DNA of 10,550 nucleotides from a virus (IMGVR_UViG_2609459856_000005:1-10550); one strand, 5' to 3'; numbered from the stretch's first letter, positions 1 to 10,550 are shown. Notes: generated by a model not told the origin, from the sequence alone. Made by a program: numbers and translations.

Positions 1-27
1 CCATCCGTTATTTGCGGAGGTGAGGCT

Positions 28-243
28 ATGAAATCCATGGACAAAATTTCAACGGGCATTGCCTACGGCACCTCCGCAGGCAGTGCTGGCTACTGGTTTT
101 TACAGTGGCTTGATCAGGTCAGTCCTTCACAGTGGGCTGCGATTGGTGTACTGGGGAGTCTGGTTCTGGGCTTCCTGACTTATCTGACAAATCTGTACTT
201 CAAAATCAGAGAAGACAAGCGTAAGGCTGCACGGGGAGAGTAA
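28..243 (+). CDS. Class II pinholin/antiholin, phage 21 S-like (71 aa, dual start)
   Basis: 71-aa ORF beginning MKSMDK (Met1 and Met4 in frame, the dual-start motif of phage-21 S giving a 71-aa antiholin and 68-aa holin). Two hydrophobic segments ([19 protein letters not shown] and [23 protein letters not shown]) and a charged C-terminal tail. GGAGGTGAGG Shine-Dalgarno upstream. Sits immediately upstream of a SAR endolysin. Confidence 0.9.
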
Positions 244-247
244 TTCA

Positions 248-598
248 ATGACTCAAAACTATGAACTGATTGTGAAAGGGATCCGCAATTTTGAGAATAA
301 AGTTACGGTAACTTTAGCGTTACGGGACAAAAAACGCTTTGACGGTGAAATTTTTGACCTGGACATCTCGCTGGACCGTGTTGAAGGTGCCGCGCTGGAG
401 TTTTATGAGGCAGCAGCCAGAAGGAGCATCAGACAGGTCTTCCTGGATGTTGCTGCCGGGTTATGTGAAGGGGATGAGCAGTCGCCGGAAAAGCGCCCCG
501 TAATTTTAGATGCGCAGAATGTTTGGATAACCTACAAAGGAAAGCTACCAGGAAGAATTACTGGTTCTCTGAAGACTCCTCCGGAATCACAACCTTAA
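248..598 (+). CDS. Lysis-cassette-associated hypothetical protein, YdfR-like (DUF1327), tentative
   Basis: 116-aa ORF with GGAGAG Shine-Dalgarno, wedged between holin and endolysin. From memory this matches the position and sequence type of ydfR in the Qin prophage of E. coli K-12 (essQ-ydfR-rrrQ order). No TM segment; soluble, mildly acidic. Family call is recalled, not searched. Confidence 0.75.
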   Translation: MTQNYELIVKGIRNFENKVTVTLALRDKKRFDGEIFDLDISLDRVEGAALEFYEAAARRSIRQVFLDVAAGLCEGDEQSPEKRPVILDAQNVWITYKGKLPGRITGSLKTPPESQP

Positions 599-661
599 GT
601 CACTGACCGGAACAGATAAACCTGTCCGTGGGCAGAAACCGATAAATCCTGATAAATATCC

Positions 662-1195
662 ATGAACGCAAAAATCAGATACGGCCTGTCGGCTGCCGTT
701 CTGGCACTGATTGCCGTCGGTGCGCCCGCGCCTGATATTCTCGACCAGTTTCTGGATGAAAAAGAAGGTAACCACACAACGGCATACCGCGATGGGTCCG
801 GCATCTGGACCATCTGTCGGGGTGCCACGATGGTGGATGGAAAACCCGTTTTTCCCGGTATGAAACTGTCGAAGGAAAAATGCGACCAGGTCAACGCCAT
901 TGAGCGTGATAAGGCGCTGGCATGGGTGGAGCGCAATATTAAAGTACCACTGACCGAACCACAAAAAGCGGGTATCGCGTCATTTTGTCCCTATAACATT
1001 GGCCCCGGTAAGTGTTTTCCATCGACGTTTTATAAGCGGCTGAATGCTGGTGATCGTAAGGGCGCATGCGAGGCGATTCGCTGGTGGATAAAAGATGGTG
1101 GGCGCGATTGCCGCATACGTTCAAATAACTGCTATGGACAGGTTATTCGTCGTGACCAGGAAAGCGCATTAGCCTGTTGGGGAATAGATCAGTGA
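662..1195 (+). CDS. SAR endolysin (T4-lysozyme-like muramidase, GH24; R21/RrrQ-like)
   Basis: 177 aa. N-terminal Gly/Ala-rich weakly hydrophobic signal-anchor-release segment ([18 protein letters not shown]). Catalytic triad spacing E35-x8-D44-x5-T50 ([16 protein letters not shown]), as in P1 Lyz and phage 21 R. Follows the pinholin as expected. Confidence 0.92.
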
Positions 1196-1659
1196 GCAGA
1201 GTCGCCGCGATTATTTATGCTCTGGTTATCTGCATCATCGTCTGCCTGTCGTGGGCGGTCAATCATTACCGTGATAACGCCATCACCTACAAAGAACAGC
1301 GTGATAAAAAAGTCAGTGAGCTGAAGCAGGTGACCGCCACCATCGCTGACATGCAGCAGCGTCAGCGTGATGTTGCTGCGCTCGATGCAAAGTACTCGAG
1401 AGAATTAGCCAATGCGAAAGCTGAAAATGAAACTCTGCGCGCTGATGTTGCCGCTGGTCGTAAGCGCCTGCGGGTCAATGCCAGTTGCTCCGCAGCCGTG
1501 CGTGAAGCCACCGGACCCACCAGCGTGGATAATGCAACCAGCCCCAGACTGGCAGACACCGCTGAACGGGATTATTTCACCCTCAGAGAACGGTTGATGA
1601 CGATGCAGAAGCAACTGGAAGGGGCACAGCTATACATTCGTGAGCAATGTCTCAGATAA
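1192..1659 (+). CDS. Rz: Rz i-spanin (inner-membrane spanin subunit)
   Basis: Protein [34 protein letters not shown]... is collinear with lambda Rz (N-terminal TM helix, coiled-coil periplasmic domain, C-terminal ...YIREQC). GTG at 1192 overlaps the endolysin stop (GTGA). The ATG at 1177 given in the ORF track lies inside the endolysin gene and is less likely. Confidence 0.88.
1412..1597 (+). CDS. Rz1: Rz1 o-spanin (outer-membrane lipoprotein), embedded in Rz in the +1 frame
   Basis: 61-aa [23 protein letters not shown]... with signal peptide and lipobox (VSAC, Cys20), a proline-rich mature part ([27 protein letters not shown]) collinear with lambda Rz1, lying entirely inside Rz in a different frame. 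Confidence 0.85.
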
Positions 1660-3262: not shown

Positions 3263-3745
3263 ATGTCAGGACCTTCGAAACCCCCGCCACGCCTGCATTT
3301 GATACGAGGCAATCCCTCAAAGCGCCCCGTTAAAGACCCCAAAAAAACCGCTAAAAAGGATGAAAAAGGTCTTCCTAAAATTCCGCAGCATTTAGGGGCA
3401 CAGGGGAAGTACTGGTTCAGGCGAATGGCGGAAGAGCTGAATGCGGAAGGGATCATTTCTCAGCTTGATGCGCGTGCGCTCGAGTTGCTGGTGGAAGCCT
3501 ACACCGAATATCGGCATCACTGCGAAACACTCGATGTTGAGGGGTATACCTACCGCACGGAAACGCAGAGCGGTGATGTACTGATTAAGGCGCACCCCGC
3601 GGCGGCAATGAAAGCGGATGCCTGGAAGCGGATCCGGGCAATGCTTGCAGAGTTTGGTATGTCACCGGCAAGCCGGGCTAAAGTAAATATCGCCGGACCG
3701 GATGATGTTGATCCGCTGGCGGAGCTTTTAAAAGCGAGAGACTGA
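3263..3745 (+). CDS. Terminase small subunit (P27 family)
   Basis: 160 aa, basic N-terminus (LIRGNPSKRPVKDPKKTAKKDEKG) typical of P27-family TerS; stop TGA overlaps the TerL ATG (TGATG). Confidence 0.88.
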   Translation: MSGPSKPPPRLHLIRGNPSKRPVKDPKKTAKKDEKGLPKIPQHLGAQGKYWFRRMAEELNAEGIISQLDARALELLVEAYTEYRHHCETLDVEGYTYRTETQSGDVLIKAHPAAAMKADAWKRIRAMLAEFGMSPASRAKVNIAGPDDVDPLAELLKARD

Positions 3746-5502
3746 TGGCAAAAGTGGCTGACGGGATCCGCTACGCCGAACGTGTTGTCGCAGGAGAAAT
3801 TGTTGCTGGCGAATTTGTCCGCTTGGCCTGCCAGCGTTTTCTTGATGATCTGAAGTACGGCGAAGAGCGGGGGATTTATTTCAGTGAACCCCGTGCGCAG
3901 CACATCCTGAATTTCTACAAATTTGTGCCTCATGTAAAAGGGGCGCTGGCAGGCCAGCCCATTGAACTGATGGACTGGCATGTATTTATCCTCATTAATA
4001 TTTTTGGTTTTGTCATTCCGCTGGTGAATGAAGAGACCGGGGAAGTTGTCATGCGCAGCGATGGCAGCGGACGTCCGGTGATGGTGCGCCGGTTCCGGAC
4101 GGCGTACAACGAAGTCGCCCGTAAAAACGCAAAATCAACTCTGTCATCGGGTATCGGCCTGTATATGACGGGGGCAGATGGTGAAGGCGGTGCTGAGGTG
4201 TATTCAGCCGCCACCACGCGTGACCAGGCCAGAATTGTGTTTGAAGACGCCAAAAATATGGTCAGAAAAGCCCGGTCGACACTCGGGCGGTTGTTTGATT
4301 TCAACAAGCTGGCGATTTACCAGGAGCAGAGCGCATCAAAATTTGAACCGCTTTCCTCGGATGCAAACAACCTGGATGGTCTGAACATCCACTGCGCCAT
4401 TATTGATGAGCTGCATGCACATAAAACCCGCGACGTGTGGGACGTTCTGGAAACGGCAACCGGTGCCCGCCTGCAGTCCCTGTTATTTGGTATCACCACG
4501 GCAGGGTTTAACAAGGAAGGGATTTGTTACGAGCAGCGTGATTACGCCATCAAGGTATTGCGTGGCTATAACAGCGATGTGGAGGGCGCTGTAAAAGACG
4601 ACTCCTACTTTGCGATTATTTACACCCTCGATGAGGGAGATGATCCGTTTGATGAAACGGTCTGGCAGAAAGCGAATCCCGGCCTGGGCATCTGTAAACG
4701 CTGGGATGATCTGCGTCGCCTGGCGAAAAAAGCGAAAGAACAGGTCTCTGCGCGGGTGAATTTTTTTACCAAACACATGAATGTGTGGGTAACAGCAGAG
4801 TCTGCCTGGATGGACATGATTAAGTGGGAGAAGTGCGAATACATTGCCCCACGACATGAGCTGAAAACGTATCCCATGTGGGTCGGCGTTGACCTTGCTC
4901 ATAAGATTGATATCTGTGCGGCGGCAAAACTCTGGCGAACGGATAACGGGCATGTTCATGCCGATTTTAAATTCTGGCTTCCGGAAGGACGGCTGGAACG
5001 ATGCTCGCGGCAGCAGGCAGAACTTTACCGGAAGTGGGCGGAGATGGATAAGCTGATTCTGACGGATGGTGATGTTATCGATCATGCTCAGATAAAAAGT
5101 GACTTACTGGAATGGATTGGTGGTGAAAACCTCAGGGAACTGGGATTTGACCCGTGGAGCGCGATGCAGTTCAGCCTGGCACTGGCTGAAGAAGGGATAC
5201 CGCTGGTGGAGGTTCCGCAGACGGTTCGCAATCTGTCAGAGGCCATGAAGGAAACGGAATCACTGGTCTATGCCGGGCGTTTCCATCACAGCAATCATCC
5301 GGTCATGAACTGGATGATGTCTAACGTTACGGTAAAACCGGACAAAAACGACAATATCTTCCCGAATAAATCCACGCTGGAAGCCAAAATCGACGGCCCT
5401 GTTGCGATGTTTACAGCAATGAGCCGGATGCTGGTCAATGGTGGTGAACCGGAGCTGGATCTGTCTGAACATCTGGTCAGCGTGGGCATCCGTTCGCTTT
5501 AA
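3745..5502 (+). CDS. Terminase large subunit (HK97-type, Terminase_1-like ATPase/nuclease)
   Basis: 585 aa. Walker A-like RKNAKST (4120-4140), Walker B-like hhhhDE ([10 protein letters not shown]), C-terminal nuclease-domain length. Position after TerS and before portal. Confidence 0.95.
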
Positions 5503-7579: not shown

Positions 7580-8785
7580 ATGGCGGTTGATATTAAAGAT
7601 GTCGAACAGGTCGCGCAGGAGCTGCAGCAGAAGTTTGACGACTTCAAAGCAAAGAACGACAAGCGCGTGGATGCGATTGAGCAGGAAAAAGGCAAACTTG
7701 CCGGGCAGGTGGAAACCCTGAACGGGAAACTCAGCGAGCTGGAAAACCTCAAAAGCGATCTTGAAAAAGAGCTGCTTGAGCTGAAACGTCCGGCAGGTGG
7801 TGCGCAAAATAAACTGGCCACCGAGCATAAAGAAGCGTTTGTGGGCTTCCTGCGTAAAGGCCGTGAAGACGGTCTGCGCGATCTGGAGCGCAAGGCATTG
7901 CAGGTGGGCACCGATGAAGACGGTGGCTATGCCGTGCCGGAAGCACTGGATCGCAACATTCTCACCCTGCTGAAAGATGAAGTGGTGATGCGCCAGGAAG
8001 CCACGGTGATCACCGTTGGTGGTTCCGACTACAAAAAACTGGTGAATCTGGGCGGCACGGCTTCCGGATGGGTTGGCGAGACTGACGCGCGCTCCCAGAC
8101 CGCCACCTCAAAACTGGGACTGATTGAACCTTTCATGGGGGAAATCTACGGTAACCCGCAGGCCACCCAGAAAATGCTGGATGATGCCTTTTTCAACGTG
8201 GAAGCATGGATCAACAGCGAGCTGGCAACCGAATTTGCCGAACAGGAAGAAATTGCCTTTACCACCGGCGATGGTACCAAGAAGCCGAAAGGGTTCCTAG
8301 CGTATGAATCCACTGATGAAACCGATAAGGTCCGGGCGTTCGGCAAACTTCAGCATATTGTATCCGGCGAAGCGACGGCGGTGACCGCAGACGCCATTAT
8401 CAAACTGATTTACACGCTGCGTAAGGCACACCGCACTGGCGCGAAGTTCATGATGAACAACAACAGCCTGTTTGCCATCCGTCTGCTTAAAGACAGCGAG
8501 GGTAACTATCTGTGGCGTCCGGGGCTGGAACTGGGGCAGCCGTCCTCTCTGGCGGGTTACGGTATCGCTGAAAACGAACAGATGCCGGATATCGCCGCTG
8601 ATGCGAAAGCCATTGCATTTGGTAACTTCAAACGGGGTTACACCATCGTTGACCGTATCGGCACCCGCATTCTGCGTGACCCGTACACCAATAAACCGTT
8701 TGTCGGTTTTTATACCACCAAGCGCACCGGCGGGATGCTGGTCGATTCGCAGGCCATCAAACTGCTGAAGATTGCAGCGGCGTAA
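7580..8785 (+). CDS. Major capsid protein (HK97 fold) with N-terminal delta/scaffolding domain
   Basis: 401 aa. AGGAG Shine-Dalgarno. The first ~100 aa are a charged coiled-coil (EQVAQELQQKFDDFKAKNDKRVDAIEQEKGKLAGQVETLNGKLSELENLKSDLEKELLELKR) typical of the HK97 gp5 delta domain removed by the prohead protease. Directly downstream of the protease gene. Confidence 0.95.
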   Translation: MAVDIKDVEQVAQELQQKFDDFKAKNDKRVDAIEQEKGKLAGQVETLNGKLSELENLKSDLEKELLELKRPAGGAQNKLATEHKEAFVGFLRKGREDGLRDLERKALQVGTDEDGGYAVPEALDRNILTLLKDEVVMRQEATVITVGGSDYKKLVNLGGTASGWVGETDARSQTATSKLGLIEPFMGEIYGNPQATQKMLDDAFFNVEAWINSELATEFAEQEEIAFTTGDGTKKPKGFLAYESTDETDKVRAFGKLQHIVSGEATAVTADAIIKLIYTLRKAHRTGAKFMMNNNSLFAIRLLKDSEGNYLWRPGLELGQPSSLAGYGIAENEQMPDIAADAKAIAFGNFKRGYTIVDRIGTRILRDPYTNKPFVGFYTTKRTGGMLVDSQAIKLLKIAAA

Positions 8786-9034: not shown

Positions 9035-9340
9035 ATGATGCCCACTCTGGAAGAGCTTCGTGTTCAGTGCCGGATTGATGATGACAATGAACAGGAGAAT
9101 TCTCTTCTTATGATGTATCTGGCTGCTGCCAGGGAAGAGGCTGAAAAGTTTTTAAACCGGACGCTTTACGATGAAACTGTTTCTGAGCAGGATACGACCG
9201 GGCTTGTAATAACACCTCTGATAAAACTGCGTCTTATGCAACTGGTTGGCTACTGGTACGAGAACAGGGAAATGCAGGATGCAGTGCCTGATTTTTTCTA
9301 TACCGGACTGCGGATGTATCGGTTTCATCCCGGAACATAG
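9035..9340 (+). CDS. Head-tail connector protein (gp6-like)
   Basis: 101 aa, MMPTLEELRVQCRIDDDNEQENSLLMMYLAAAREEAEKFLNRTL... is the characteristic N-terminus of gp6-like head-tail connector proteins. AGAGGT Shine-Dalgarno; position after the capsid gene. Confidence 0.85.
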   Translation: MMPTLEELRVQCRIDDDNEQENSLLMMYLAAAREEAEKFLNRTLYDETVSEQDTTGLVITPLIKLRLMQLVGYWYENREMQDAVPDFFYTGLRMYRFHPGT

Positions 9341-9348
9341 GAGGATTC

Positions 9349-10550
<1,202 letters not shown>

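Follow-up and report, generated by a model that had tools for sequence, protein, structure and literature searches.

The 116-codon gene that separates the holin and endolysin genes of this virus (positions 248 to 598) belongs to the ydfR family, and we suggest, with a probability that we would put at about 0.4, that it is a dispensable accessory gene of the late transcript whose product acts on host RNA decay rather than forming part of the lysis machinery. Positions are those of the window, that is, the whole 10,550-nucleotide stretch of viral DNA that was analyzed. The gene is optional, its product is cytoplasmic and under selection, the protein core corresponds to the fragment of the Escherichia coli K-12 protein reported to bind RNase E, and relatives reside outside lysis cassettes; together, these points favor an action on RNA decay over a role in the timing of lysis. 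We hold the figure to about 0.4 because the biochemistry is thin and the reported association may be bridged by RNA.

Results

A ydfR Gene within a Complete Lysis Cassette

Profile searches with Pfam and PHROG models identify a complete lambdoid lysis cassette on the + strand at the left end of the window. It begins with a 71-aa class II pinholin of the phage-21 S type (28 to 243; PF04971, "Bacteriophage P21 holin S," E = 1.4e-35, and PHROG holin families), which has a dual start at Met1 and Met4 (MKSMDK). A Shine-Dalgarno-like GGGGAGAG, found by reading the sequence, lies within the holin 3′ end (233 to 240), 7 nt 5′ of the ATG of the ydfR-family gene. This gene runs from ATG to TAA (248 to 598) and encodes a soluble protein of 116 aa (13.1 kDa, pI 5.5; PF07041, DUF1327, E = 1.4e-42); it is followed by a 63-nt spacer (599 to 661), whose 3′ end was recognized by comparing upstream regions as the leader CCTGATAAATATCC (648 to 661), and by the gene for an RrrQ-type SAR endolysin of 177 aa (662 to 1195; PF00959, E = 1.4e-24). 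Reading of the endolysin sequence shows an N-terminal hydrophobic stretch rich in Gly and Ala together with an E-x8-D-x5-T motif, which we take to be the marks of a SAR endolysin such as phage 21 R. The genes for the Rz i-spanin (1192 to 1659; PF03245, E = 2e-49) and, embedded in it in another frame, the Rz1 o-spanin (1412 to 1597; PF06085, E = 1.4e-18), both with coordinates as in ON470583, end the cassette; HNH endonuclease, small and large terminase, and portal genes come next, and beyond the portal lie genes for a prohead protease, the capsid, and head-tail connectors. Escherichia phage vB_EcoS-689R5 matches this region at 99.6% identity. Two reverse-strand ORFs (587 to 964 and 595 to 936) are antisense to the endolysin gene and were judged spurious.

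Between Rz and the HNH gene stands a convergent pair, an 88-aa ORF (1815 to 2081, +; phrog_5415, unknown function) facing the gene for a 179-aa YfbU-domain protein (2087 to 2626, −; PF03887, E = 1.5e-10; phrog_6084). The pair is present in vB_EcoS-689R5 and missing from the AR_0077 prophage, which has an identical ydfR gene and otherwise the same gene order and in which the HNH gene directly follows Rz; it is another optional insert, in the forward/reverse layout also seen with DUF1327 pairs. Farther along, an IS3-family transposase OrfA gene (9411 to 9758; PF01527, HTH_Tnp_1, E = 5.9e-13) follows a head-tail connector gene (9035 to 9340), and at this position (region 9347 to 10550) the AR_0077 prophage has a head-closure gene. 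The window probably contains an interrupted, defective prophage. In close relatives, three or four tRNA genes lie between the Q antiterminator gene and the holin (3427 to 3733 in locus L001; 11179 to 11488 in L108), a cluster that corresponds to the DNA just upstream of the window's first position.

Analysis of substitution rates and the recurrence of the ORF in the same slot in relatives confirm that it is a genuine gene, as opposed to a chance reading frame. It matches PF07041 at 144.3 bits (cut-off 25; aa 1–112 on profile positions 1–92) and five PHROG families, all labeled "unknown function" (PHROGs 2091, 406, and 1085 at E values of 1e-50 to 1e-68); a search of NCBIfam returned no model. 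An identical gene (100%) in the E. coli AR_0077 prophage is annotated "YdfR family protein," the ydfR of vB_EcoS-689R5 is 99% identical, and K-12 YdfR is 81% identical over aa 1–74 and unrelated beyond. The residues that form the family signature (R44, E46, G47, L50, E51, F52, Y53, E54, and A57) are all present. Compared with diverged relatives by the Nei-Gojobori method, codons 1–75 give dN/dS values of 0.25 to 0.35 at dS values up to about 1.5, and codons 80–112 give 0.12 to 0.32 at dS values of about 0.2 to 0.3. These codon comparisons indicate that both the core and the tail are under purifying selection in the ydfR frame, and the very unlike synonymous distances of the two parts point to a recombination joint near codons 75–80. 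Family, name, and position are already recorded in Pfam, RefSeq, and EcoCyc-type resources and are thus already known. A preliminary description of this DNA had reported a soluble 116-aa ORF between holin and endolysin, had proposed Pfam DUF1327 for a search, and had pointed to ydfR of Qin-type prophages as its counterpart; the + strand position, the lack of a membrane segment, the DUF1327 score, and the gene order of K-12 Qin bear it out on all of these points.

An Insertion/Deletion Polymorphism between Holin and Endolysin

Among 470 phage records that match the holin-to-endolysin DNA, 98 cover at least 80% of the region. An even sample of 60 phage records yielded 43 that hold both holin and endolysin; ydfR is present in 13 of these, another insert in one, and the two lysis genes are directly adjacent (738-bp span) in the remaining 29. 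The earlier statements that related cassettes pass directly from holin to endolysin and that the gene is inserted here thus agree with most sampled records and with phage VT2phi_272, whose flanks are near-identical to those of the window and whose endolysin ATG lies 4 nt past the holin stop. Global DNA alignment of window positions 1 to 1300 with VT2phi_272 reveals an extra segment from 244 to about 675 on the + strand, made up of a 4-nt spacer, ydfR, the 63-nt spacer, and five initial endolysin codons that differ (MNAKI in the window, MSRKL in VT2phi_272, which lacks ydfR). The junction reads GGGGAGAG TAA GCTG ATG, opening endolysin gene R, in VT2phi_272, and GGGGAGAG TAA TTCA ATG, opening ydfR, in the window. 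Junctions were compared in VT2phi_272, BP-4795, PhiR12_2_star, and a Qin-type locus, and their agreement implies that ydfR takes the translationally coupled slot otherwise used by the endolysin; to judge from these alignments, it is read from the ribosome-binding site (RBS) inside the holin 3′ end. The gene is an insertion/deletion polymorphism and is optional in the lysis cassette. Holin alleles, C-terminal tail included, are common to cassettes with and without ydfR, to within one or two residues.

Upstream regions of the endolysin gene were compared at eight loci with ydfR and one without, a set that includes L002–L006, L010, and L107. An AU-rich leader containing ATAAATAT stands directly before the endolysin ATG at all eight ydfR loci, whatever the sequence farther upstream, the full leader being present at six, and no Shine-Dalgarno match was found in the leader at any of the eight. 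This arrangement suggests that insertion of ydfR probably lowers endolysin translation relative to that of the holin. Just 5′ of the leader are GATAAA(Y)CCTG-like repeats (616 to 626 and 641 to 651). The 63-nt spacer has no significant RNA structure (folding z = −0.05) and no Rfam match, and the idea that it hides an RNA element was rejected on these grounds. The search for promoters and terminators consisted of consensus scans, which found no promoter-like or terminator-like site on the + strand of window positions 1 to 1200. Since the cassette shows no promoter, terminator, Rfam match, or unusual RNA structure, ydfR would be read within the late transcript.

Distribution and Synteny in Escherichia

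The DUF1327 family is tiny and nearly confined to Escherichia. It accounts for 313 clusters among 5.8 billion proteins and for 89 representatives among 1.84 billion 50%-identity clusters. Across 185,579 species genomes, homologues were found on Escherichia and Shigella contigs only, plus two MAG contigs labeled Veillonella and Bacillota that carry an E. coli-type cassette and are probably misbinned. Complete E. coli genomes have ydfR in 4349 of 5426 cases (about 80%), at 8617 places and with up to 10 per genome, and the 114–116-aa form is intact in about 1900 of them. The GenBank phage set holds 101 records with a homologue, all of them Escherichia or Stx phages.

A P21-type holin gene lies directly upstream of the ydfR homologue at each of 91 loci, with 4 nt between holin stop and ydfR start in 90 and 3 nt in one. 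An RrrQ-type endolysin gene lies 3′ of ydfR at 88 loci, the other three ending before the endolysin is reached, and the distance between the two genes varies from 38 to 918 nt. Independent checks found the same slot in BP-4795, PhiR12_2_star, and four E. coli chromosomes, and the K-12 Qin prophage has the order essQ (holin)-ydfR-rrrQ (endolysin)-rzpQ, with ydfR starting 4 nt past the holin stop. The conserved holin-X-endolysin arrangement anticipated in the preliminary description is therefore what the survey, the sampled chromosomes, and Qin all display.

Some E. coli loci encode long YdfR variants (169–183 aa), and in these an 86-aa convergent ORF overlaps the ydfR 3′ end (L003, 3458 to 3718, −; L005 and L086, 4500 to 4760, −; 91% identical between loci). 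In PV340551 this reverse ORF is labeled "DUF1823 containing"; it matched no Pfam model and is not significantly similar to the partner family of about 94 aa found outside Escherichia. A recombinant cassette, L037, has a different reverse ORF of 90 aa (5215 to 5487, −) before a second copy of the endolysin gene. The gap between holin and endolysin is a hot spot for small genes on the reverse strand.

Relatives outside Escherichia

Stand-alone DUF1327 relatives of 72–86 aa occur in prophages of Citrobacter, Enterobacter, Cronobacter, and other Enterobacteriaceae. They are located after the tape-measure gene (L093–L095), between genes resembling gpM and gpL (L102), between genes resembling gpL and gpK (L104), after a gene resembling gpI (L092 and L103), and between a gene for a 485-aa protein and the HNH/terminase genes (L096, L098, L099, and L101). 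These are five non-lysis slots in the tail or packaging regions of late operons, always on the late-gene strand, which argues that the function of the DUF1327 domain is not tied to lysis.

Every one of these distant relatives has a convergent ORF within 42 nt; in L103 the two overlap by 4 nt. The partner ORFs of most loci belong to one family of about 94 aa, whose members are 36–99% identical to one another and end in ...INELMQPP.R..F...PE.F[LI]K. Such pairs, with gaps of about 4–15 nt, are found in L093 (5001 to 5553), L096 (5001 to 5529), L098 and L099 (5001 to 5526), L101 (4001 to 4517), L102 (4001 to 4526), and L092 (4001 to 4576). The convergent ORFs of L103 (4282 to 4506, −; 74 aa) and L104 (4273 to 4821, −; 182 aa) are unrelated to this family, so it is the forward DUF1327 gene that stays constant, while the cargo on the reverse strand differs. 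Neither these two ORFs nor the partner of about 94 aa has a Pfam match, the PADLOC models detected no family at E ≤ 0.01 in the window protein, in one distant homologue, or in the convergent partners, and a single-protein scan with P0174 gave no match. The gene arrangement suggests that a DUF1327 gene and its convergent ORF form a mobile two-gene cassette; the ydfR copy in the window has no convergent partner.

A Constant Core with Exchangeable Tails

Members of the YdfR family are modular, joining a constant core (aa 1 to about 75) to one of several tails. In the window protein, the conserved core domain comprises aa 1–77 (248 to 478), as defined by the AF2 model, conservation, charge, and dN/dS, and the exchangeable C-terminal tail, QSPEKRPVILDAQNVWITYKGKLPGRITGSLKTPPESQP, comprises aa 78–116 (479 to 595), as defined by pLDDT, mosaic architectures, and dN/dS. 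Tails include the window type, the K-12 type, the window type with an extension of 60–70 aa (the 176- and 183-aa forms), and others. Structure prediction, a step proposed in the preliminary description, gave a soluble strand/helix core: the AF2 model, built with a 34-sequence alignment that includes relatives at 17–39% identity (pLDDT 87.3, pTM 0.71), predicts three antiparallel strands (residues 5–14, 18–27, and 34–43) and a long helix (50–74), with the signature R44-x-E46-G47-x-x-L50-E51-F52-Y53-E54-x-x-A57 at the junction of strand 3 and the helix. The core is acidic, with a pI of 4.8 in the window and of 4.3–5.7 in 33 of 34 relatives. The tail (aa 78–116) is basic (pI 9.8), rich in Pro and Gly, and predicted to be disordered, and residues 73–113 fall below a pLDDT of 50 in the full-length AF2 model (pLDDT 58.9). 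No membrane-spanning segment was found in the window protein (maximum Kyte-Doolittle 19-residue mean 0.69; GRAVY −0.40).

The predicted core has no informative fold match. When the family profile was searched against PDB chains, nothing scored better than E = 1.4; Foldseek with the poor full-length model gave nothing below E = 0.16 against the PDB, and a Foldseek search of viral predicted structures gave uncharacterized proteins only (best E = 5e-3). The window protein lacks the alpha-beta-beta-beta-alpha fold with basic RNA-contacting loops of a dsRBD, and that assignment was rejected. Fusions were considered as functional hints (287-aa, 206-aa, and tandem-repeat relatives) and set aside, no second Pfam domain having been found in them. 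BLASTP gave no match between the C-terminal extension of the 176- and 183-aa E. coli variants and the convergent partner family, and the notion that the long variants are inverted fusions with such a partner was dropped. Two distant relatives, P0190 (176 aa) and P0192 (170 aa), apparently carry a pair of DUF1327-like domains in tandem within a single polypeptide; the second of the pair is a weak profile match (E = 2e-5 to 1e-4) below the Pfam cut-off. The window-type basic tail (EKRPIILEAQ..KGKLPGRITGSLKTPP) also occurs in P0154 (112 aa), behind a different, coiled-coil-like N-terminal module, and as a second copy in L037 (5142 to 5243), upstream of the second endolysin gene; its behavior suggests an independent module tied to the region 5′ of the endolysin.

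Discussion

YdfR of K-12 (b1555, UniProt P76160), encoded by the Qin cryptic prophage, is listed as uncharacterized (PMC11551758), and the only substantive biochemistry on it is a 2026 report in RNA Biol (PMC13232886). In that work, aa 1–72 sufficed for a two-hybrid signal with RNase E 1–597; this fragment gave the stronger signals with RNase E constructs, and the full-length protein gave a signal with one construct only, Rne 1–597. Strep-YdfR co-purified chromosomally encoded Rne1-598-FLAG from a lysate for which nuclease treatment is not described, so that the association could be bridged by RNA, and the eluate contained abundant DNase-resistant nucleic acid (PMC13232886). Overproduction of YdfR in K-12 changed very few transcripts and did not slow growth, and the native gene is almost silent, with almost no reads under standard growth (PMC13232886). 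A 2026 overexpression screen associated ydfR with a 3-fold rise in the streptomycin MIC (PMC12924614), to which we attach little weight as a guide to function.

The core of the window protein (aa 1–77) covers the K-12 fragment reported to bind RNase E (aa 1–72) and is 81% identical to it. We propose that the gene is carried on the late (lysis) transcript in lambdoid prophages of Escherichia; if the orthologue is a guide, the acidic core of its product would associate with the catalytic N-terminal half of host RNase E, with RNA, or with both. The protein would then affect how RNA is processed or degraded in the cytoplasm during late infection, perhaps by shielding the long late transcript or by redirecting RNase E. 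The conserved acidity of the core would fit docking on a basic, RNA-binding surface. As a side effect in cis, the insertion would move the endolysin from a strong holin-coupled RBS to a conserved AU-rich leader that lacks a Shine-Dalgarno match. Against action on RNA it can be said that an acidic domain is an unusual RNA binder, that the basic tail of the window protein is missing from K-12 YdfR, and that the link to RNase E comes from one study of an overproduced, tagged K-12 protein. A more elaborate proposal joins the two lines of evidence: YdfR would be the temperate-phage equivalent of the RNase E modulators of virulent phages, a small acidic domain that docks on the catalytic half of RNase E late in induction. 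In addition, its gene would form the constant, forward-strand part of a mobile cassette in which a DUF1327 gene faces a small convergent gene and which moves among intergenic slots in the late operons of Enterobacteriaceae prophages, the lysis copy in E. coli being a fixed, partner-less derivative. We offer this version tentatively and regard it as unlikely.

A direct role in lysis is one alternative reading. YdfR could be a cytoplasmic regulator that tunes lysis by binding the C-terminal tail of the pinholin or the unexported SAR endolysin, and the invariant position speaks for it: within Escherichia, ydfR is found only right after the holin stop (91 of 91 loci), always upstream of an RrrQ-type SAR endolysin, and, on the evidence of the junctions, it appears translationally coupled to the holin. 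Such constancy fits a lysis role and equally fits plain inheritance through recombination in the conserved flanks. According to a passage of PMC13232886, a genetic screen cited there scored ydfR as important for envelope integrity; we infer that an insertion in ydfR could have caused the envelope phenotype through polarity on the downstream endolysin gene rrrQ. The role in lysis timing or regulation that the preliminary description drew from the conserved position is not supported, because about two thirds of the sampled phages with the same holin and endolysin lack ydfR, the holin is practically identical with and without it down to its C-terminal tail, YdfR has no membrane segment, distant homologues lie in tail and packaging regions among unrelated neighbors, and in K-12 the overproduced protein caused no growth defect and associated with RNase E and RNA (PMC13232886). 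We consider a lysis regulator doubtful. It seems more improbable still that the insertion is kept for its effect in cis, uncoupling the endolysin from the holin RBS and lowering the endolysin:holin ratio while the protein matters little. Without ydfR the endolysin ATG does sit 4 nt past the holin stop, behind GGGGAGAG, and all eight ydfR-containing architectures do have the ATAAATAT-containing leader; however, dN/dS values of 0.25–0.35 at saturated synonymous distance, and a motif and fold kept across genera, are signs of selection on the protein, the stand-alone domain is conserved where no endolysin follows, and in K-12 Qin coupling is kept because the ydfR stop overlaps the rrrQ start. An effect in cis can coexist with any function of the protein.

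Inhibition of host enzymes is common among small acidic phage proteins, and ydfR might accordingly be a gene for lysogenic conversion, defence, or anti-defence, carried on a mobile cassette that serves phage-phage or phage-host conflict. Its presence/absence polymorphism, its up to 10 copies per genome, the joint travel of the domain and a convergent small gene into many intergenic slots elsewhere in the Enterobacteriaceae, and the convergent ORF behind the longer YdfR of some E. coli variants all lend themselves to this interpretation, which we nonetheless judge unlikely, given that no PADLOC defence model matched, that the window gene has no promoter of its own and no convergent partner, and that almost no ydfR reads were seen in K-12 under standard growth (PMC13232886). 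Truncated and frameshifted copies, several entries of odd length, and a highly mosaic C-terminus might also suggest a functionless passenger, a decaying remnant that the cassette tolerates. Purifying selection on core and tail, the intact 114–116-aa form in about 1900 complete genomes, and a confidently predicted fold common to relatives of 17–39% identity in other genera make this very improbable. The "tolerated moron" of the preliminary description came closer than its lysis proposal: presence/absence variation with sharp junctions agrees with a moron, whereas ydfR brings neither promoter nor terminator, and purifying selection implies that it is more than tolerated.

We therefore return to an accessory late protein that acts on RNA decay as the reading we favor. 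ydfR is among the commonest uncharacterized prophage genes of E. coli, Stx1 and Stx2c phages included, and if the association with RNase E is functional, it would bear on how stable the late transcript is, which in Stx phages includes the toxin genes. The polymorphism also provides a natural experiment on gene order, RBS sharing, and the holin:endolysin ratio. What is new here comprises the exact boundaries of the indel and the takeover of the RBS, the modular core/tail structure with a confident core model and conserved core acidity, and the non-lysis contexts and convergent partner of the distant DUF1327 relatives.

K-12 YdfR is like the window protein in its PF07041 membership, its 81% identity over aa 1–74, and its slot. 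It differs in having 103 aa, an unrelated C-terminus (…EKLSEKVESYLQHQYSFKIENPANKHERPHHKYL), and a stop that overlaps the rrrQ start, whereas the window protein has 116 aa and a basic, Pro/Gly-rich tail and is followed by a 63-nt spacer.

Known regulators from lysis cassettes include the S21-71 antiholin, T4 RI, and P1 LydB, and these proteins, like Mu gp25, are so far known to work in the membrane or periplasm by way of segments that span the membrane, are secreted, or bind the holin. ydfR resembles their genes, and that of Mu gp25 (the "releasin"; PMC9239132), in lying within or beside a holin-endolysin pair and being co-expressed with it. Unlike these regulators, YdfR lacks hydrophobic segments and a signal sequence, can be present or absent with the same holin alleles, and has relatives outside lysis cassettes. 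Assignment to the antiholins or other membrane-acting regulators was rejected on two counts: YdfR has no membrane, secreted, or SAR segment, and, with 29 of 43 sampled cassettes lacking ydfR, there is no sign of need for, or co-adaptation to, a particular holin.

Morons and other inserts of lambdoid phages, such as lambda bor and lom or ant, which lies between R and Rz in Stx phages, offer a parallel in genome organization, ydfR likewise being an optional gene that interrupts a conserved late-gene order with sharp junctions; in BP-4795 a single cassette contains both ydfR and an ant insert. Classical morons come with a promoter and a terminator, and the lysogen expresses them. ydfR departs from them in that no promoter or terminator of its own was detected and the RBS of the holin is borrowed. 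It is not a moron in the strict sense, the consensus scans of positions 1 to 1200 having found no flanking sigma-70 promoter and intrinsic terminator, although it shares with morons the presence/absence polymorphism and the sharp junctions.

Phage modulators of RNase E include phiKZ Dip (gp37), the T7 gp0.7 kinase, and T4 Srd. No structural or sequence similarity of YdfR to any known RNase E modulator was found; like these three, YdfR would be a small phage protein directed at a host RNA-decay enzyme in the course of lytic growth, if the association described for K-12 is functional. In that event it would be, to our knowledge, the first RNase E-directed factor of lambdoid temperate phages. The phiKZ Dip protein works through an acidic surface, and the core of YdfR is likewise acidic.
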